Source: a virus (lineage: Duplodnaviria; Heunggongvirae; Uroviricota; Caudoviricetes). From it: a stretch of DNA of 28,522 bases. A model generated the notes under the pieces. That model worked only from the letters and a program-made list of their open reading frames with translations, searched no databases and was not told the origin of the DNA. The position numbers were made by a program, and so were the translations under genes. Below, in pieces: positions 2,898-25,710 of the stretch. The DNA is taken from the IMG/VR virus record IMGVR_UViG_2529292923_000024. One strand, written 5' to 3'. Positions within the stretch are counted from its first letter, which is position 1; every line of letters starts with the position of its first letter.

Positions 2898-3532
2898 TGG
2901 TTGCCTCCTTTGCGAAGCTCAGCGGCGAAGGCTACTGCGTGATCATGATGTTCAAGCGTGTATGCACACTCCGCAAACATCTCCACGCCCTGCGCCCGGA
3001 CTTCAGCCAGGAAAGCATCGGTGGCTGGCGTTTCCCGTGAACGGTAAGACCAAACAATGTCGTCTGTTTCACTGGGTTCTTCATGAGAGCAATTTGGGCA
3101 GACAGCAGTACAACCAGCATGATCTTCTATGAGCATCTTCAGCCACGAGTTCTCCTCCGCCAGCGTCACGCGACTGGCCTCCAGTTCTGCTACGCGCTGT
3201 TTTGCAGCATCCAGTTCAATCGACAATTTTTCCAACTGCTCTTTATGCTTTTTATATTCCTGATATGCGTGCCAAGACTGACCTTTGCGCACACTATCAG
3301 TGATATCAGCAACCTGCTCTGGTGTTAGCGTGGTCAGTGGCTGTGCTGGGAAAATAAGCACTTTCCCGGAATCCCAATCAAAACCAGCATGAATTGACTG
3401 AACCTCAACTGAAGGTGTTGAACCAATGCTGCCAGGCGAATGAACAACGATCGTTACATCCATATCGCGACGATGGCTGTGGTTGTTGGACAAAATACGA
3501 TTCACCAACTCAGAAAATTTGGAGAATTTCAT
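2894..3532 (-). CDS. hypothetical early protein with coiled-coil, possibly Ea22-like
   Basis: 212 aa; overlaps the upstream gene by 4 nt; central heptad-like region (EQLEKLSIELDAAKQRVAELEASRVTLAEEN); CPNC motif. Confidence 0.4.
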   Translation of the reverse strand: MKFSKFSELVNRILSNNHSHRRDMDVTIVVHSPGSIGSTPSVEVQSIHAGFDWDSGKVLIFPAQPLTTLTPEQVADITDSVRKGQSWHAYQEYKKHKEQLEKLSIELDAAKQRVAELEASRVTLAEENSWLKMLIEDHAGCTAVCPNCSHEEPSETDDIVWSYRSRETPATDAFLAEVRAQGVEMFAECAYTLEHHDHAVAFAAELRKGGNQ

Positions 3533-3540
3533 GCGGAGCC

Positions 3541-3951
3541 TCAGTATGTAAAATAGACAGTTGCCACGCCGTTATAGTGATCAAACGATACGGCATTTAC
3601 TTCGTAGCTGGCAGGGAGCTTCGATCCGAGAACGTATCCGGGCCACGTTTTCCATGGAATTTCTCTGCGCTCACTATCGCCATATACCGTACATCCCAGA
3701 GAGCCTACAGCTTCATTAGAACGCGTGCCGCACGTTATGAATCCCAGATTTTGCTTACTGCTCTTAATGGTGATTGGGTGAACGCTGGCTGATGCATTAG
3801 CAGCACGCTGTGCCTGTTGGTTTGCGATATTCGCAGAGTTCGCAGCAGCTACAGCAGCCGTAGTCGCGGCGGTAGAGGCTACAATAGCTGCTGAAGCATG
3901 CACTTGTTGGATATTCACCAACAATGCCGCGACAAAAATCATCTTCTTCAC
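3541..3951 (-). CDS. secreted or periplasmic hypothetical protein
   Basis: 136 aa; N-terminal signal peptide (MKKMIFVAALLVNIQQVHA), Ala/Thr/Asn/Gln-rich linker, C-terminal domain with two Cys. Confidence 0.5.
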   Translation of the reverse strand: MKKMIFVAALLVNIQQVHASAAIVASTAATTAAVAAANSANIANQQAQRAANASASVHPITIKSSKQNLGFITCGTRSNEAVGSLGCTVYGDSERREIPWKTWPGYVLGSKLPASYEVNAVSFDHYNGVATVYFTY

Positions 3952-8221: not shown

Positions 8222-9381
8222 ACAGTTTAACGGCAAATAACCGTTTGTCGCAACAGCTGGTGGTCAGCGTCGCTGAACACCTGTTGTTACGGCATGAATG
8301 CAGATTACCAAATCACCTGGCTGTAAGTAACCACAGAGAACTTTACCTGACTGTGGGGGGCGAGTTGTGCAGGAACTTAACCGCTGGTTTCGTGACGGAA
8401 GAGGGCTTTATGTCCATGTTATTCGTTGGGAGCCAGAAACACAGCGCGTTATCTATCTTCGCAAAGACTACCCGCATGAGTGCTTTAGTCCTTTGTGGAA
8501 ATTCAGGCGTGATTTTGTTGAGTGTGAAGGACCACCAGCACATTGATTCTGCCATTCCGGGACGTTACACTGTTCAGGCACCTTATAAAGCGGGTGCCGG
8601 GATTGGCGTCCTGAAATTGATTACTGAGCATAACCGCGCTCATGCGGTTTTTTCGTGTCATGAGCATTGCTACGCCCAAATTATGGTGGGGCGTACAGGG
8701 CCGACTTCGGTCGGGCCGGGTTCGGTAGTCTCCGGTAACGCCAACCCTGTACGTCTCACCACCTCTGTGATTGGCGTCCCATGTGGTGAGTTTTCTGAAA
8801 AACTGACTACCGGGGCTGTCACCATGACTACTCTCCCAACCCTCTCTCAACCTGAAATTGCCATCGTTGATGGTCAGGCTGTTACATCTTCTTTGGCTGT
8901 TGCTGACTTCTTCTCTAAACGTCATGACGATGTTCTGAAAAAGATCCGCATTTTGGATTGTTCTCCAGAGTTTTGTGCCCGCAATTTTGCGGAGACATCA
9001 ATTTTGGTACACCAGCCCAACGGCGGTACTCGCAAACTTCCTTGCTACCACATCACCCGCGACGGCTTCGCGTTCCTGGCAATGGGCTTCACTGGCAAAC
9101 GTGCTGCCCAGTTCAAAGAGGCATACATCAATGCCTTTAACCAGATGGAGAAACAGCTTTCAAAGCCCTCTGTACCGAGCGACGTTGCACATAACGCCAG
9201 CGTTCTCTATTCCTACATTTCATCAATTCATCAGGTCTGGTTGCAGCAGCTTTATCCCATGCTGGAAAAAGCTGAATCACCGCTGGCTGTAAGTCTGTAT
9301 GACCGAATTAACGATGCGGCATTTCTTGCCCGTCTTATTCATTCGTCGCTGAACTCTTCAGAGGTAAGGGGGCGCAAATGA
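8218..9381 (+). CDS. Rha-domain phage regulatory protein with an unusual ~200-aa N-terminal extension
   Basis: The Rha-type segment (TLPTLSQPEIAIVDGQAVTSSLAVADFFSKRHDDVLKKI ... HITRDGFAFLAMGFTGKRAAQFKEAYINAF) occupies residues ~203-300 of a 387-aa ORF; the upstream 202 codons are open in the same frame. Confidence 0.55.
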   Translation: MNSLTANNRLSQQLVVSVAEHLLLRHECRLPNHLAVSNHRELYLTVGGELCRNLTAGFVTEEGFMSMLFVGSQKHSALSIFAKTTRMSALVLCGNSGVILLSVKDHQHIDSAIPGRYTVQAPYKAGAGIGVLKLITEHNRAHAVFSCHEHCYAQIMVGRTGPTSVGPGSVVSGNANPVRLTTSVIGVPCGEFSEKLTTGAVTMTTLPTLSQPEIAIVDGQAVTSSLAVADFFSKRHDDVLKKIRILDCSPEFCARNFAETSILVHQPNGGTRKLPCYHITRDGFAFLAMGFTGKRAAQFKEAYINAFNQMEKQLSKPSVPSDVAHNASVLYSYISSIHQVWLQQLYPMLEKAESPLAVSLYDRINDAAFLARLIHSSLNSSEVRGRK

Positions 9382-19054: not shown

Positions 19055-19130
19055 GGCCCTTTAGCTCAGTGGTGAGAGCGAGCGACTCATAATCGCCAGG
19101 TCGCTGGTTCAAATCCAGCAAGGGCCACCA
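19055..19130 (+). tRNA. ileZ: tRNA-Ile2 type (anticodon CAU, ileX/ileZ-like)
   Basis: Cloverleaf assembled by hand: acceptor GGCCCTT/AAGGGCC, anticodon loop CTCATAA, TPsiC GGTTCAAAT, 3' CCA; near-identical to E. coli ileX as recalled. Confidence 0.85.
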
Positions 19131-19137
19131 TCACATA

Positions 19138-19214
19138 CCGCCATTAGCTCATCGGGATAGAGCGTCAGCCTTCGAAGCTGGCTGTGCGGGGTTCAAGTCC
19201 CCGATGGCGGTCCA
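19138..19214 (+). tRNA. argN: tRNA-Arg (anticodon UCG)
   Basis: Acceptor CCGCCAT/ATGGCGG, anticodon loop CTTCGAA, TPsiC GGTTCAAGT, 3' CCA. Confidence 0.8.
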
Positions 19215-19227
19215 TTATCAGCATCAT

Positions 19228-19304
19228 GCGTTGTTAGCTCAGTCGGACAGAGCAATTGCCTTCTAAGCAATCGGTCACTGGTTCGAATCCAGTACAACGC
19301 GCCA
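19228..19304 (+). tRNA. argO: tRNA-Arg (anticodon UCU)
   Basis: Acceptor GCGTTGT/ACAACGC, anticodon stem ATTGC/GCAAT with loop CTTCTAA, TPsiC GGTTCGAAT, 3' CCA. Confidence 0.85.
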
Positions 19305-20665: not shown

Positions 20666-20979
20666 TTTTTTTATTTGCTGTTTATTAAAAATACTACTGC
20701 ATGGTGAATCCCCCTGTGCGGAGGGGCGATCAGCAACCAGGTATATGGGATAATCGCGGATTCAGGTGCTGATACTGAATTCACCGGGAGGCACCCGGCA
20801 CCATGCTTTGCCGCAAAAGTGTTGTTTCTGTTTTTCTCAAACTATCATCGTTATCCCTTTATTTCCGGCTGCGCATGGCGTGGCCTTTTTTTTACGACCA
20901 GCCACTGGCAGATGGCCATCCTGTAATTTGATTCCGGTTCCGGCTTTTTAACTCTGTTCCTGTACACGGGAGAAATTCG

Positions 20980-22833
20980 ATGTCGATTAAACATTATGAT
21001 GTTGTCAGGGCGGCGTCGCCGTCAGACCTTGCGGAAAAGCTGACACACAAACTGAAAGAGGGCTGGCAGCCGTTTGGTAGTCCGGTGGCCATAACCCCTT
21101 ATACCCTGATGCAGGCGATTACAGCAGAAGGTGATGTGGTGGTCAGTGGTGCAACTGAGCCGGATTGGTACTACGTCATCGTACTGGCCGGGCAGTCCAA
21201 TGCCATGGCTTACGGTGAAGGGCTTCCGCTGCCGGATTCATACGATGCTCCGGATCCGCGCATTAAACAGCTGGCGCGCCGCAGTACAGTTACGCCGGGT
21301 GGGGCTGCATGCAGATATAACGATATTATTCCGGCCGACCACTGCCTGCATGATGTGCAGGATATGAGTACGCTGAATCATCCGAAGGCAGACCTGAGCA
21401 AAGGGCAGTACGGCTGTGTCGGCCAGGGCTTACATATTGCCAAAAAACTGCTCCCGTATATCCCGAATAACGCGGGGATCCTGCTGGTACCATGCTGTCG
21501 TGGTGGTTCGGCATTCACCCAGGGCGCGGAGGGGACATTCAGTGCGGACACGGGGGCCAGCCAGGATTCGGCACGCTGGGGTGTGGGTAAACCGTTATAT
21601 CAGGACCTGATTGCGCGCACTAAAGCTGCATTACAGAAGAACCCGAAAAATGTGTTGCTGGCGGTGTGCTGGATGCAGGGAGAGTTTGACATGAGCGCCG
21701 CCACCCACGCACAGCAACCTGCGCTGTTTACAGCCATGCTGACACAGTTTCGTGCTGACCTCTCCGTGTTTAACGCGCAGTGCCATGGTGGCAGTGCTGC
21801 AGATGTGCCGTGGATTTGTGGTGACACGACGTATTACTGGAAAAATACATACGCTACCCAGTACGACACCGTGTACGGCGGGTATAAAAACAGGGAGAGT
21901 GAGGGCGTTTATTTTGTGCCCTTCATGACAGACGGTAACGGCGTCAATACCGCCACTAACGCACCGGCAGAAGATCCGGATATTCCGGCATCAGGATATT
22001 ACGGTGCGGCATCGAGAACGAATGGAAACCAGGTATCATCAAACCGCCCGACACATTTCAGTTCATGGGCGCGCAGGAGCATTATTCCGGATCGTATGGC
22101 AACCGCTATTCTGAACGCAGCCGGGCGCACCTCAGCTTTCATCAGTGGTAAGGCACCGGAAATCAAACCCTCGCCCGGCGGCAACACGCCATCGGGGCCG
22201 TCTGAAGATGCATCCGTACGCACAATCTCCCTGTTGCCGACAGCCGGAGAGGCTGCTGCGCAGGGCTGGACCATTAAGGACGGCGGAATTCAGTTGTCGG
22301 GTGGTGTATTTAAGATCGCCAAGCAGAGCAATAAAACCTGGTCCCTGATGCATCCGGTGGATGACGCAGTCTCCCTGCTGACACGGGGTGGCAGACTGAG
22401 CTGTAAGTTTCGACTGTCAGGCGCACTGACCAACAACCAGTTCGGCCTGGGAATTTATCTGTATACCGATGTAGCGTTACCTGACGTCGTGGCGATGACC
22501 GGGACTGGTAACCCGTTCCTGATGTCGTTCTTCACCCAGACCACAGACGGCAAACTGAATCTGATGCATCACAAGAAAGCAGGAAACACAAAGTTGGGCG
22601 AGTTCGGGAATTACAGTAATGACTGGCAGACGCTGGAACTGGTGTTCACCGCCGGCAGTGCCACGGTTACTCCGAAACTGAATGGAGTGGCTGGCCCGGC
22701 ATTCCAGGTCATAAAAGACAGTCTGACACTGGGGCTGAATGCGCTGACGCTGACGGATATTACCAAAAATGCAGCGTATGGCGTTGAGATAGAAAGTCTG
22801 GTGCTGGAGATAAATGCACCGGCATCATCATAA
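20980..22833 (+). CDS. nanS: prophage sialate O-acetylesterase NanS-p (DUF1737 plus SASA/SGNH esterase domain plus C-terminal domain)
   Basis: 617 aa; N-terminal DUF1737-like MSIKHYDVVRAASPSDLAEKLTHKLKEGWQPFGSP; esterase GQSN motif (VIVLAGQSNAMAYGE). Confidence 0.75.
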   Translation: MSIKHYDVVRAASPSDLAEKLTHKLKEGWQPFGSPVAITPYTLMQAITAEGDVVVSGATEPDWYYVIVLAGQSNAMAYGEGLPLPDSYDAPDPRIKQLARRSTVTPGGAACRYNDIIPADHCLHDVQDMSTLNHPKADLSKGQYGCVGQGLHIAKKLLPYIPNNAGILLVPCCRGGSAFTQGAEGTFSADTGASQDSARWGVGKPLYQDLIARTKAALQKNPKNVLLAVCWMQGEFDMSAATHAQQPALFTAMLTQFRADLSVFNAQCHGGSAADVPWICGDTTYYWKNTYATQYDTVYGGYKNRESEGVYFVPFMTDGNGVNTATNAPAEDPDIPASGYYGAASRTNGNQVSSNRPTHFSSWARRSIIPDRMATAILNAAGRTSAFISGKAPEIKPSPGGNTPSGPSEDASVRTISLLPTAGEAAAQGWTIKDGGIQLSGGVFKIAKQSNKTWSLMHPVDDAVSLLTRGGRLSCKFRLSGALTNNQFGLGIYLYTDVALPDVVAMTGTGNPFLMSFFTQTTDGKLNLMHHKKAGNTKLGEFGNYSNDWQTLELVFTAGSATVTPKLNGVAGPAFQVIKDSLTLGLNALTLTDITKNAAYGVEIESLVLEINAPASS

Positions 22834-22916
22834 AAAGTGAGCCAGCCAAATGGAAGGTATCGTTAAACTCACCGGTAGTGTCAGTGGGTCGTCTGAGATG
22901 CCTGCATGAGTTATCA

Positions 22917-22949
22917 GAGCCATCAGTACTTAACTGGTGGCTTTTTTTA
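22917..22949 (+). terminator. rho-independent terminator upstream of the lysis cassette
   Basis: GCCATCAGT-ACTTA-ACTGGTGGC hairpin (one mismatch) followed by T7. Confidence 0.6.
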
Positions 22950-22983
22950 TTGCTGTCAGCTTCCGGATAACGGGAGACGGGGT

Positions 22984-23199
22984 ATGTACCAGATGGAAAA
23001 AATCACAACAGGTGTGTCATACACCACGTCAGCGGTGGGAACGGGCTACTGGTTCCTGCAGTTGCTGGACAGGGTTTCCCCGTCTCAGTGGGCGGCAATA
23101 GGCGTGCTGGGGAGTCTGCTGTTTGGGCTGCTGACATATCTGACTAACCTGTATTTCAAAATCAGAGAGGACCGTCGTAAGGCGGCGCGGGGGGAGTAA
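22984..23199 (+). CDS. S: phage-21-type pinholin (class II holin) with dual start motif
   Basis: 71 aa: [71 protein letters not shown]; closely resembles S21 as recalled; Met1 and Met4 give the two starts. Confidence 0.85.
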
Positions 23200-23203
23200 A
23201 GCG

Positions 23204-23548
23204 ATGAAGAAAAAATACGAACTGGGTGTTAAAGGGATAAATAATTACCCGGATAAGATTACTGTTACTGTGGCACTGGAAATTGGTGGGTATCCGTCAC
23301 TGTTGTTGCCAGATGTGGCGATTAGTCTTGACCGTACTGAAGGTGCCACGCTGGAGTTTTACGAAGCTGAGGCGAAAAAGCAGGCGAAGCAGTTTTTCAT
23401 GGATGTTGCTGCCGGGTTATGTGAAGGGGATGGTCCGTTGCCGGAAAAGCGGCCCATCATTTTAGAGGCGCAGGATGTGTTGATAACCTACAGAGGAAAA
23501 CTACCGGGAATAATTACTGGTTCTCTGAAGACTCCACCGCTGGCCTGA
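23204..23548 (+). CDS. hypothetical protein between holin and endolysin (same position as ydfR in Qin)
   Basis: 114 aa; ATG 4 nt after the holin stop with a GGGGAG RBS; no signal peptide or TM segment evident. Confidence 0.5.
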   Translation: MKKKYELGVKGINNYPDKITVTVALEIGGYPSLLLPDVAISLDRTEGATLEFYEAEAKKQAKQFFMDVAAGLCEGDGPLPEKRPIILEAQDVLITYRGKLPGIITGSLKTPPLA

Positions 23549-23598
23549 AGACTTAATATATCCAGGGATTTGAAATCGATAAACCCTGATAAATATCC

Positions 23599-24132
23599 AT
23601 GAACGCAAAAATCAGATACGGCCTGTCGGCTGCCGTTCTGGCGCTGATTGGTGCAGGGGCGTCTGCGCCTGAAATCCTCGACCAGTTTCTTGACGAAAAA
23701 GAAGGTAACCACACCACGGCATACCGTGATGGTGCGGGTATCTGGACCATCTGCCGCGGTGCCATCCTGGTGGATGGTAAACCTGTCGTCCCGGGCATGA
23801 AGTTGTCGAAGGAAAAATGCGACCAGGTTAACGCCATTGAACGTGATAAGGCGCTGGCATGGGTGGAGAAAAACATCAGAGTGCCACTGACCGAACCCCA
23901 GAAAGCGGGGATTGCGTCATTCTGTCCGTACAACATTGGTCCTGGTAAGTGTTTCCCGTCGACGTTTTACAGACGAATTAATGCAGGTGATCGCAGGGGA
24001 GCGTGTGAGGCGATTCGCTGGTGGATTAAGGACGGTGGCAGAGACTGCCGTATTCGTTCAAACAACTGTTACGGTCAGGTATCCCGTCGTGACCAGGAGA
24101 GCGCGCTGGCGTGCTGGGGTATCGACAGATAA
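23599..24132 (+). CDS. R: SAR endolysin (T4-lysozyme-like, GH24)
   Basis: 177 aa; N-terminal weakly hydrophobic SAR segment (YGLSAAVLALIGAGASA); catalytic E ... D ... T spacing (EGNHTTAYRDGAGIWTICRG). Confidence 0.8.
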   Translation: MNAKIRYGLSAAVLALIGAGASAPEILDQFLDEKEGNHTTAYRDGAGIWTICRGAILVDGKPVVPGMKLSKEKCDQVNAIERDKALAWVEKNIRVPLTEPQKAGIASFCPYNIGPGKCFPSTFYRRINAGDRRGACEAIRWWIKDGGRDCRIRSNNCYGQVSRRDQESALACWGIDR

Positions 24133-24221
24133 GCAGAATATTTTGCTGAAAAATAAGGCATGGCCACGCGGGCGGATAACACGAAATCCTGCGAACTGGC
24201 GAAACGTAAGTGAATAAAAGT

Positions 24222-24260
24222 AAAAACCCCGTTTGTTGGCACCAAGCGGGGTTTTGTGTT
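24222..24260 (+). terminator. terminator-like hairpin after the endolysin gene
   Basis: CCCCG ... CGGGG stem with a long loop, followed by TTTTGTGTTT. Confidence 0.45.
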
Positions 24261-24288
24261 TCTGACCTTGAGTAAGGCAAGGGAGAAC

Positions 24289-24471
24289 ATGGCGAAGTAT
24301 AAACGAATTCTGTTGAGGTTGACTATGAAAAATGGCCTTGAACTGAAAGCGCCTGTAACTGATGACATCAGCAGAGCACTGGCTTTTGCCATTAAGTGGG
24401 TGGCGGTCGGTGTTGCTGTGTCCCCGATGCTGTATGGGCTGGCAAAACTGGTCATTGCGTTGAAATCGTGA
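24289..24471 (+). CDS. hypothetical small protein (60 aa) with C-terminal hydrophobic segment
   Basis: ATG after a GGGAGAAC RBS; [60 protein letters not shown]. Confidence 0.4.
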
Positions 24472-24485
24472 AGGGAGGATTAAGC

Positions 24486-24617
24486 ATGTCAGACAAACTC
24501 ATAACGCTGGCGAAGATCCTCTGTGTAATTGTCGGCATTTCATTTTCACTAATGCTGGTTGCTCTTTTTCTTTCCATGGCCTGGATGATGTTGTCTTCGT
24601 CGGGGTTGCTGGGGTGA
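24486..24617 (+). CDS. hypothetical small membrane protein (43 aa, single TM)
   Basis: ATG after a strong AAGGGAGGA RBS; [43 protein letters not shown]; its 3' end overlaps the start region of Rz. Confidence 0.45.
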
Positions 24618-24628
24618 ACATAAACCGA

Positions 24629-25087
24629 ATGCTTTCCGCGTTTATCGTTATTCTGCTGGTGGCCTGTGGTGCGCTGTGGATGGCAACAGACCATTACCGT
24701 GATAACGCGATTACCTACAAAGCGCAGCGCGATAACAAAGCCAGTGAACTGAAGCTGGCGAACGCAACCATTACTGATATGCAGGTGCGCCAGCGCGATG
24801 TTGCTGCGCTCGATGCAAAATACTCGAGGGAATTATCCGATGCGAGAGCTGAAAATGAAACTCTGCGCGCTGATGTTGCCGCTGGTCGTAAGCGCCTGCG
24901 GATCAACGCCACCTGTCCAGGCTCCGTGCGTGAAGCCCCCACCACCTCCGGCGTGGATAATGCAACCGGCCCCCAACTGGCAGACACCGTTACACGGGAT
25001 TATTTCACCCTCAGAGAGCGGCTGATGACGATGCACAAGCAACTGGAAGGGGCACAGGACTATATCCGCACTCAGTGCCTGAAATAA
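24629..25087 (+). CDS. Rz: Rz i-spanin
   Basis: N-terminal TM segment then [44 protein letters not shown], closely lambda-Rz-like; an alternative GTG start lies at 24614. Confidence 0.85.
24840..25025 (+). CDS. Rz1: Rz1 o-spanin lipoprotein, embedded in the +1 frame of Rz
   Basis: Lipobox LVVSAC and proline-rich [30 protein letters not shown]; the start could instead be the Met at 24855. Confidence 0.8.
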
Positions 25088-25437
25088 GTTTTGTTGATGC
25101 GCCGTATCGTCGCTGTATTCCCTCATTAACAGAGACCGCAGCCCGACAGGGAGACTCCTCTGCGCGAGTGTGCGGGGATAATCAAAAACGATACACACCG
25201 GGGTTTACCGCGTTAACGGAGCGAGGCGTTGTCCCCTCATAGTCGCCTGTCCGGTGCGATGGTGGAAGAAGCCGGATGTTTATCACTATTAATTGATGAC
25301 ACAGAAATGGATTCATTGAATTTCAGCACGTTTTTGTATTCGTGTTATTGAACATCTGTTTATTTTACTTTTAACATATTGATAATAAAAAGAGCTGTAA
25401 ATCTTTAGATGAGTCGATTTTGTCCGGGGAAGTTCAA

Positions 25438-25578
25438 ATGGATTTTATGCTGACGGTTTCTGGTGTGGTTATCCTGTCCATTGCTTATACTGCAGATAAA
25501 TATGGCTGCCATTTGTTATCACGTATTGGCGCTTATTGTTCGTTGATGCTGATTTTCTCGTCGCTTTTTTTTGAGTAA
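25438..25578 (+). CDS. possible small hydrophobic peptide (46 aa)
   Basis: ATG with GGGGAAG upstream; MDFMLTVSGVVILSIAYTADKYGCHLLSRIGAYCSLMLIFSSLFFE; lies in an AT-rich region; coding status uncertain. Confidence 0.25.
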   Translation: MDFMLTVSGVVILSIAYTADKYGCHLLSRIGAYCSLMLIFSSLFFE

Positions 25579-25710
25579 GTTATATTAATTATAACAAATA
25601 ATTTTCTGTGTTATTTTTTCAGGCTATCCCGTCAGAGGGGAAGCCTGTACTGCCGGGGAGCGAATGGAAAACTGATGTGTCCGGTAACTGCGTGTTCTGT
25701 GAACACCATG

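Follow-up and report, generated by a model that had tools for sequence, protein, structure and literature searches.

The viral DNA stretch analysed here (IMG/VR record IMGVR_UViG_2529292923_000024, 28,522 nucleotides (nt); hereafter the window) is a lambdoid Escherichia coli prophage. Between the endolysin gene R and the spanin gene Rz of its lysis cassette lie an intrinsic terminator and two small open reading frames (ORFs), ORF1 and ORF2, of 60 and 43 amino acids (aa). Both appear to be genuine genes for small inner-membrane peptides, carried as accessory cargo of a hot-spot between R and Rz. They are already annotated as hypothetical prophage genes of unknown function. What we add is codon-level coding evidence (for ORF1, and less strongly for ORF2), a combinatorial peptide hot-spot, a terminator-first and promoter-less architecture that implies antitermination-dependent expression, and an antisense-RNA hypothesis. 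We tentatively propose that the peptides modulate the lysis pathway from the inner membrane late in lytic growth; the anatomical parts of this reading are far more secure than the functional part.

The initial annotation had ended R at 24132 and placed behind it a hairpin terminator, a 60-aa ORF with a good ribosome-binding site and a C-terminal hydrophobic helix, and a 43-aa ORF with a single transmembrane segment preceded by a Shine–Dalgarno (SD) sequence. All of these elements are present (Table 1): the end of R agrees with the ORF list and the PF00959 match, the hairpin was recovered by a terminator scan, and both ORFs are read directly from the sequence, their products being predicted single-pass membrane peptides. 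Both ORFs lie on the strand of the late operon and have strong SDs. The genes are tightly packed, with the ORF1 stop codon inside the ORF2 SD and the ORF2 stop codon over a possible GTG start of Rz at 24614; the Prokaryotic Genome Annotation Pipeline (PGAP) takes the ATG at 24629 instead. The ORF listing gives ORF2 merely as the tail of a 73-aa GTG ORF. The view that the two ORFs are additions to the canonical S–R–Rz/Rz1 cassette also holds: in the Qin prophage of E. coli K-12, which has a different Rz type and no equivalent peptide gene, rrrQ and rzpQ abut directly. As possible roles the initial annotation had suggested antiholin-like modulators, small toxins or exclusion peptides; in the families searched, neither peptide shows homology to a holin, an antiholin, the Mu releasin, a known type I toxin or a defence protein.

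Table 1. Features of the lysis region of the window
Feature	Position	Strand	Evidence or remarks
SASA/NanS-type esterase	20980–22833		
S21-type class II holin (pinholin), dual start MYQMEK	22984–23199	+	PF04971, E 2.3e-32; PGAP 'class II holin family protein'
DUF1327/YdfR gene, 114 aa	23204–23548		Between holin and endolysin
Endolysin R	23599–24132	+	PF00959 lysozyme, E 3.3e-24
Conserved R-distal untranslated leader	24133–24222	+	Mean column identity 91% (25 diverse loci including Salmonella)
Small stem–loop GGAU-AACACGAA-AUCC	24174–24189	+	Invariant across aligned loci
Bidirectional intrinsic terminator hairpin	24223–24255	Both	13-bp stem (6 G–C pairs), 7-nt loop (terminator scan, fold)
ORF1 leader with local hairpin (CCUUG 24266–24270 : CAAGG 24278–24282)	24256–24288	+	Fold, z = -2.8
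ORF1, 60 aa, membrane peptide	24289 (ATG)–24471	+	SD AGGGAG; RefSeq WP_001151822/3, hypothetical protein
Predicted sigma-70-like promoter match TAGTCA-18-TATACT	24325→24296	-	Within ORF1 codons 3–13, points at hairpin
ORF2 SD AAGGGAGGA	24471–24479	+	Overlaps ORF1 stop codon
ORF2, 43 aa, single-pass membrane peptide	24486 (ATG)–24617	+	RefSeq WP_001280932.1, hypothetical protein
i-spanin Rz	24614 (GTG) or 24629 (ATG)–25087	+	PF03245, E 7e-47
Rz1 inside Rz	~24840–25025	+	Lipobox LVVSAC

Coding evidence for ORF1 and ORF2

The ORF1 product is predicted to begin with a basic helix (KYKRILLRL), which a conserved MKNGLE.xAP linker joins to a transmembrane helix at the C-terminus, and the motifs (K/R)Y(K/N)R, MK(N/D)G.E..AP and YG.AKL are conserved throughout its family. 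AlphaFold2 places helices at residues 2–14 and 23–59, joined by a low-confidence linker (mean predicted local distance difference test score (pLDDT) of 76). The 19-residue Kyte–Doolittle maximum is 1.9, and the net charge of +5 on the N-side predicts an N-in topology. Among 20–22 distinct nucleotide alleles, including those of Salmonella and of tail-region paralogues, the in-frame ratio of nonsynonymous to synonymous substitution rates (dN/dS) is 0.12 for the transmembrane part and 0.20 over 59 codons, compared with 1.1–9.5 in the other two frames, and 30 of the 48 variable sites fall at codon position 3. This pattern clearly points to a coding sequence. Both M1 and M13 (24325) are conserved, and M13, which has a GAGG 6 nt upstream, is a possible second start. 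Upstream of M1, the leader hairpin partly sequesters the SD (24280–24285); its stem is kept in the Salmonella loci, with a different loop.

The ORF1 family appears to be narrow and without known relatives. A profile search with the ORF1 alignment against 1.84 billion cluster representatives recovered only 17 proteins, each of them a similar small peptide, and gave no link to a larger or named family. A scan of genome contigs with this alignment gave 41 pattern matches, none of which tblastn confirmed. Neither ORF belongs to a Pfam or NCBIfam family, and PADLOC returned nothing for either at E ≤ 1; a DUF3930 match (E 0.08) is noise. Direct sequence membership links ORF1 to phrog_1115 (E 2.6e-42, residues 1–60), phrog_4493 and phrog_3246, and ORF2 to phrog_4906 (E 2.1e-23, residues 1–43) and to the Sakai gene ECs_5707, also called XECs191; the PHROG families are of unknown function and none of these entries carries a functional annotation. 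Some gene calls extend ORF1 to 71–105 aa, and others, 90 aa long, overlap ORF2 but use a different frame; these are artefacts of gene calling or fusions caused by frameshifts.

ORF2 shows weaker constraint. Its dN/dS is 0.48, and its variable sites are spread over the three codon positions (24/19/24) with no bias; the 43-codon frame is kept in 17 protein variants. Variation is high in the C-terminal half, and a few alleles carry frameshifts. Conservation is seen in the SD and the start codon, in the length of 43 codons and, within the peptide, in roughly the first 25 residues and the overall hydrophobicity. AlphaFold2 models it as one helix (residues 2–38, pLDDT 89), and it has a 19-residue Kyte–Doolittle maximum of 2.9 and an N-side net charge of +1. 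In E. coli O157 Sakai, ribosome profiling (Ribo-seq) identified the homologue XECs191 as a translated intergenic ORF encoding a predicted inner-membrane protein (Huecker et al. 2017, PMC5597208), with 30 reads per kilobase per million (RPKM) for the transcript and 12.6 RPKM for footprints in LB medium (PMC5597208). The current Sakai annotation carries two ORF2 homologues, ECs_5707 in prophage Sp5 and ECs_5713 in Sp6; we found no literature on the RefSeq accessions or on ECs_5707. ORF2 is thus very probably translated, and the importance of its peptide sequence itself is less certain. Lack of amino-acid conservation, on which the initial annotation had let the coding status of both ORFs turn, is clearly refuted for ORF1 and marginally so for ORF2.

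Fused alleles of the two ORFs also occur. In P0210 and P0213 (83 aa), from the C + B + dA + D arrangement of the R–Rz gap (modules defined below), single-base frameshifts put the N-terminal half of ORF2 and the transmembrane part of ORF1 into one frame, giving a predicted two-helix protein; these fusions may be sequencing errors or natural variants.

We regard it as extremely improbable that either ORF, or both, is a remnant without function or a frame left open by chance. The weak codon signature of ORF2 and the common occurrence of truncated, fused and frameshifted module copies would fit such decay, but the low dN/dS of ORF1 is accompanied by conservation across genera, the SD, start codon and length are kept in both ORFs, and the ORF2 homologue has Ribo-seq support.

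A terminator-first arrangement without a promoter

The hairpin between R and ORF1 has the G+C-rich stem, short loop and 3′ U-run of a predicted intrinsic terminator. It is preceded by AAAA and followed on its 3′ side by TTTTGTGTTT (terminator scan), and these flanking A- and U-runs make it bidirectional: the U-run reads UUUUGUGUUU on the plus strand and UUUUUACUUUUAUU, the better of the two, on the minus strand. The stem is conserved over the E. coli and Salmonella loci with compensatory changes, U-G/U-A/A-U at one pair and U-A/C-G at another.

In 22700–25700 we found no plus-strand sigma-70 promoter match that reached 9/12 positions; between R and Rz, even the lower cut-off of 8/12 gave none, and the terminator scan found no terminator between ORF2 and Rz. 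In lambdoid late transcription, the Q-modified complex that starts at pR′ ignores terminators. A strong upstream terminator combined with the lack of a plus-strand promoter therefore suggests that ORF1, ORF2, Rz and Rz1 are transcribed only by terminator-resistant polymerase. Moreover, the overlapping stop, SD and start signals from ORF1 through ORF2 to Rz predict translational coupling down to Rz.

Upstream of the hairpin, the R 3′ untranslated region (UTR) is itself conserved. Its small stem–loop (variants GGAU-AACAC(G/A)AA-AUCC) is kept from E. coli to Salmonella behind different endolysins, and it matches no Rfam family. Because the stem 45–48/57–60 is invariant, there is no covariation evidence for or against it; in a covariation search of the stem–loops of the R 3′-UTR, compensatory changes were found nowhere but in the terminator. 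The leader also holds an A/U-rich stretch, and the first ~155 nt after R are retained in Shiga toxin (Stx) phages that lack ORF1. A search of Rfam, at the gathering threshold for the whole window and at E ≤ 10 for 23950–24750, gave nothing in this region except a match to the rimP leader (minus strand, E 0.084) that is below the gathering score and is caused by the terminator alone. A 17-codon ORF at 24161–24214 was dismissed, as its ATG is not conserved.

These properties could mean that the R 3′-UTR and terminator (24133–24255) form the functional unit, as a 3′-UTR-derived or stand-alone small RNA (sRNA) with the ORFs as incidental neighbours. The 120-nt segment is conserved across the two genera behind different endolysins and outlasts ORF1 in the Stx phages, and a stem–loop, an A/U-rich stretch and a terminator with a U-tail are the usual layout of an Hfq-dependent sRNA. 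Yet the segment has neither an Rfam family nor an upstream promoter match, its covariation is confined to the terminator, and no peak in Hfq cross-linking and analysis of cDNA (Hfq-CRAC) falls in the R–Rz gaps of Sakai prophages Sp5 and Sp6 that we examined. As this explanation also leaves the purifying selection on ORF1 without a cause, we consider it very improbable. Of the sRNAs known from prophages of enterohaemorrhagic E. coli, AgvB and AsxR are other sequences at other locations, and the Pas sRNAs lie between esterase and holin, not between R and Rz.

A mosaic hot-spot between R and Rz

A 488-nt segment of the locus is matched in 2121 of 5426 complete E. coli genomes (about 40%), with match coverage of at least 80% in 990. 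Among phage records, 276 have an ORF2 homologue, often unannotated, and most of these phages convert their hosts to Stx1 or Stx2 production; ORF1 occurs in only 14. We anchored 80 IMG/VR loci on R alone and read one representative of each gap-length class (Table 2).

Table 2. Content of the R–Rz gap in 80 loci anchored on R
Gap length (nt)	Loci	Modules
306–307	17	C
344–345	9	A'
435	3	C + B
447	1	A + D
496–498	16	A + B (arrangement of the window)
651	18	C + B + N-terminally truncated A + D
~990–1005	9	Antirepressor + B
Incomplete	7	Unscored

In this scheme A is ORF1 and B is ORF2; A' is RKYKRFFLRLSIMKGIEVETPASLDLTRAAAFAIRIVAIAVLVWAIRWW, D is MSAELIRAMAFAIRIVAIAVLVWAIRWW, and C, a 45-aa peptide with a single transmembrane helix, begins with FDFSKLIRE and ends in IRWW or AIKG. 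All 73 complete gaps are at least 306 nt long, and in each representative the last small transmembrane-peptide ORF ends at, or a few nt before, the Rz start. Loci with the same R differ in what the gap holds. The R–Rz gap therefore appears to be a recombination hot-spot for one to four small single-pass peptide genes drawn from at least five interchangeable modules. In Stx phages, including Sakai Sp5, ORF2 homologues adjoin Rz.

Larger genes enter the same gap. In L256–L258 (2638–3573), L259–L261 (1711–2406) and L254 (7814–8383), it holds a methyltransferase or antirepressor gene, always beside an ORF2 homologue. The cargo types are a 311-aa N6/N4 DNA methyltransferase, located between B and Rz, an ANT-family antirepressor and a P22_AR_N antirepressor.

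Relatives of ORF1 in other genomic contexts

Two Salmonella lysis cassettes carry ORF1 homologues (83% identity) between endolysin and Rz, together with class II holins and endolysin N-termini of the signal-arrest-release (SAR) type. Behind their two different endolysins, the R-distal leader and hairpin (~120 nt) are conserved. More distant family members, some in tandem pairs, adjoin tail-fibre genes (L250, L252 and L266), and one lies on a 950-nt metagenome contig, L267, on which no lysis gene is called beside it. In every case a strong hairpin, flanked by A- and U-runs, precedes the gene by 20–35 nt. The terminator thus moves together with the peptide genes to other genomic settings.

Three further observations concern these relatives. 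On L267, an A-type and a C-type peptide gene stand in tandem behind the terminator (325–737) and both products end in AAIRWW, so that IRWW looks like a feature of the peptides themselves and more than a side effect of the ribosome-binding site of Rz; the next gene, for which no Pfam family is listed, runs to the end of the contig, and products of genes in such a place were hardly ever searched. In L246 (~2978–3004) and L030 (~3620–3646), an 8-codon upstream ORF, M(C/G)REV(C/L)SL, has a stop codon overlapping the GTG start of the ORF1 homologue, and its sequence can pair to bury the downstream SD (AGGGA...UCCCU). The window lacks this upstream ORF; there a deletion has brought the upstream SD and ATG right up to the KYKR codons. 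Finally, the Salmonella cassette L249 has, ahead of the conserved leader and the ORF1 homologue, a 29-aa hydrophobic ORF (MICFVAAFMLACDGRSGWGWFLLVGLIVM; 2723–2812) that overlaps the stop codon of the endolysin gene.

The position of ORF2 directly before Rz raises another explanation, namely that it is mainly a translated leader that brings ribosomes to the Rz start by termination–reinitiation, its peptide having little or no function. In every length class examined, the 3′ end of the last small ORF contains the Rz SD, and in the window the ORF2 stop codon overlaps the Rz GTG; the relaxed codon pattern of ORF2, its variable C-terminal half and the circulation of frameshifted and fused alleles would also be expected. 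However, the N-terminal 25 residues and the hydrophobicity of ORF2 are conserved across the 276 phage records, ORF2 is retained where a methyltransferase gene separates it from Rz, and the IRWW ends of the sister peptides are conserved on L267, where no Rz is called. We judge a mere leader function improbable.

A minus-strand promoter-like site and possible antisense control

Within ORF1, a predicted sigma-70-like site on the minus strand (Table 1) points at the terminator. From it, a ~75-nt RNA could pair with the ORF1 SD and start codon. Such an RNA would prevent translation or induce cleavage until it is titrated out by late transcription, which would make ORF1 an antisense-controlled toxic peptide. 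The site is the sole promoter-like match of at least 9/12 in the R–Rz gap (a 3-kb scan found two others outside it), and the hairpin has its better U-run on the minus strand. The same geometry recurs in A' (TGGACA-18-TATACT, 10/12), in the ORF1 homologues of Salmonella and in three paralogues from the tail region (L250, L252 and L266), and the unrelated C module has an extended -10 element (TGnTAAAAT) in its first codons that likewise points at the hairpin.

The arrangement resembles type I toxin–antitoxin systems (hok/sok, ldr/rdl, ibs/sib and symE/symR) and P22 sar in several respects. The peptide is hydrophobic and no longer than 60 aa, its SD lies partly in a hairpin, relatives that look ancestral have the coupled upstream ORF M(C/G)REV(C/L)SL, and the predicted short antisense RNA would cover the SD and start codon and end at an intrinsic terminator. 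The P22 sar RNA is a precedent for antisense control of this kind. By contrast with the known systems, the antisense RNA is only predicted here, ORF1 has no promoter match of its own from which a separate toxin mRNA could arise, and searches of Pfam and NCBIfam found no similarity to Hok, Ldr, Ibs, TisB or other known type I toxins. The hexamers moreover fall on the conserved KY and L(T/S)M codons, and the promoter matches could therefore reflect constraint on the protein; the L267 lineage has no usable -35 element; and the Hfq-CRAC sRNA table for Sakai lists no peak in the R–Rz gaps of Sp5 and Sp6, both of which are of the Ant type with a different hairpin. We rate antisense control, the main rival explanation and a plausible one, as unlikely; it would be compatible with late expression and with a role in lysis.

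A possible role in lysis

Phage lysis is regarded as a well-understood three-step pathway of holin, endolysin and spanin. We propose that the Q-modified polymerase would read through from pR′, so that synthesis of the peptides would coincide with that of the pinholin, endolysin and spanins late in the lytic cycle, whereas in the lysogen the terminator would keep the membrane-active peptides and Rz/Rz1 silent. Translation of Rz would be coupled to that of the preceding peptide. For both peptides, the predicted topology has a cytoplasmic N-terminus, one transmembrane helix and at most 8 periplasmic residues. From the inner membrane they might act at lysis to tune the pinholin/SAR-endolysin/spanin pathway; membrane energisation, release of the SAR domain and spanin activity are possible targets, and the peptides would be modulators and not essential lysis effectors. 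Quite possibly, then, ORF1 and ORF2 encode late-expressed inner-membrane modulators of lysis. The membrane location, late co-expression and coupling to Rz, all predicted, favour such a role, as does their presence in three different pinholin/SAR-endolysin cassettes. The terminator-first layout is, in addition, repeated for family members at other late-operon sites.

Accessory membrane proteins in lysis cassettes are known, and in kind the feature is unsurprising. Antiholins and accessory holin-like proteins (lambda S107, phage 21 S71, P1 LydB, LydC and LydD, P2 LysA and T4 RI) are likewise small membrane proteins encoded inside the lysis cassette and co-expressed late. With them ORF1 might share a conserved dual start, M1/M13, the longer form of which adds four or five positive charges, but the two ORFs have no sequence similarity to antiholins and are separate genes downstream of the endolysin, not alternative holin starts. 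Mu gp25, the releasin (DUF2730), is a 99-aa, N-out/C-in protein with a 73-aa acidic cytoplasmic domain that is needed for SAR-endolysin release (PMC9239132). Like the peptides studied here, it is not a holin, has one transmembrane segment and is encoded close to a SAR endolysin and spanins (PMC9239132); it shows that lysis by SAR endolysins may draw on additional membrane proteins (PMC9239132). ORF1 and ORF2 differ from it in size, in their predicted N-in topology and basic N-side and in having no Pfam match. They differ from spanins in having neither a periplasmic coiled coil nor a lipobox, and Rz and Rz1 are present separately.

Several points weigh against a lysis role. Pfam, NCBIfam and PHROG reveal no homology to a holin, antiholin, releasin or spanin; as gp25 is a 99-aa N-out DUF2730 protein, ORF1 and ORF2 are not releasins. 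Neither peptide has the charged C-terminal tail that is a holin hallmark: they end in ...IALKS and ...SSSGLLG, with C-side net charges of +1 and 0. ORF2 is weakly constrained and frameshifted alleles exist. The Sakai Ribo-seq signal comes from uninduced cultures and is low, with a best ribosome coverage value of 0.43 (PMC5597208). Because ORF1-family genes also lie beside tail-fibre genes and on L267, the family is not tied to lysis cassettes, and because antirepressor and DNA methyltransferase genes share the gap, position alone does not imply a lysis function.

Some of these points would fit membrane peptides that are expressed in the lysogen and exclude superinfecting phages or otherwise benefit the host, as HK97 gp15 or other small membrane-protein morons do. 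The tail-fibre neighbourhood of some family members is a classical moron and exclusion site, the products are small single-pass inner-membrane proteins, the gap content is hypervariable, and the ORF2 homologue gave a Ribo-seq signal in uninduced Sakai. Lambdoid morons (Juhala et al. 2000; HK97 gp15, lambda bor and lom) are similarly inserted between genes that are adjacent in relatives, with variable content and tail-fibre neighbours. A moron, however, has the order promoter–gene–terminator, whereas ORF1 and ORF2 have their terminator upstream and no sigma-70 promoter match, which makes independent expression in a lysogen unlikely. Such a reversed design suits membrane-active products that need to be silent in the lysogen. 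In addition, neither ORF has a PADLOC or Pfam match, and the low Ribo-seq signal could reflect spontaneous induction. Exclusion or another lysogenic benefit is, in our estimate, decidedly unlikely.

If the peptides do influence how the pinholin is triggered, how the SAR endolysin is released or how the spanins act, they would provide a new means of controlling Stx release and of engineering the timing of lysis. Additional components have changed the model of lysis before, as the antiholins and the Mu releasin each did, and the present set of peptides is widespread, unstudied and linked to Stx phages. In these phages, lysis timing governs toxin release. A broader version of our proposal, which we hold to be unlikely, is that the gap of Stx-type and related lambdoid phages carries a combinatorial set of terminator-gated membrane micro-proteins, perhaps antisense-controlled, that forms a new regulatory layer of pinholin/SAR-endolysin lysis; such a layer would set lysis timing and hence burst size and Shiga-toxin release. 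Should the genes be inert cargo, they would still be a clear example of hot-spot genes silenced by an upstream terminator and switched on only by antitermination. As ORF2 is unannotated in many phage records, adding it is a simple gain in annotation.

Lysis-cassette context and other features of the window

The late region runs in the order Q, three tRNA genes, SASA/NanS-type esterase, class II holin, DUF1327/YdfR gene, R, Rz with embedded Rz1, and terminase. The N-terminus of R, MNAKIRYGLSAAVLALIGAGASAPE, is weakly hydrophobic, Gly/Ala-rich and SAR-like; we class it so on established knowledge of lysis by phages 21 and P1, taking the SAR type to accompany pinholins. The DUF1327/YdfR gene is a second non-canonical insertion in the cassette. 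Its equivalent in O104:H4 and SCU-105 is a truncated pseudogene, followed by a minus-strand hypothetical gene.

Upstream of S, the gap between esterase and holin (22834–22983) contains a 12-pair terminator-like hairpin at 22916–22944. According to a 2026 preprint, the prophage sRNAs PasA and PasC sit between a sialic-acid esterase gene and the holin/lysozyme operon. Farther upstream, an Rfam match to the STnc100 sRNA (102 bits) at 20673–20842 precedes the esterase, at the expected place of the pR′ leader or short late transcript. The tRNA genes downstream of Q (19055–19301) correspond to Ile, Arg and Arg in a related RefSeq genome, an arrangement typical of Stx-type phages. At 8578–8766 there are adjoining Rfam matches to isrK (59 bits) and C4 antisense RNA (82 bits); the region encodes Rha-family regulators in a related genome and resembles an antisense immunity element of the P1/P7 type. 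Downstream of Rz, an AT-rich stretch holds a small hydrophobic ORF of 46 aa (25438–25578; MDFMLTVSGVVILSIAY...), which RefSeq lists as the hypothetical protein WP_000347013.1.

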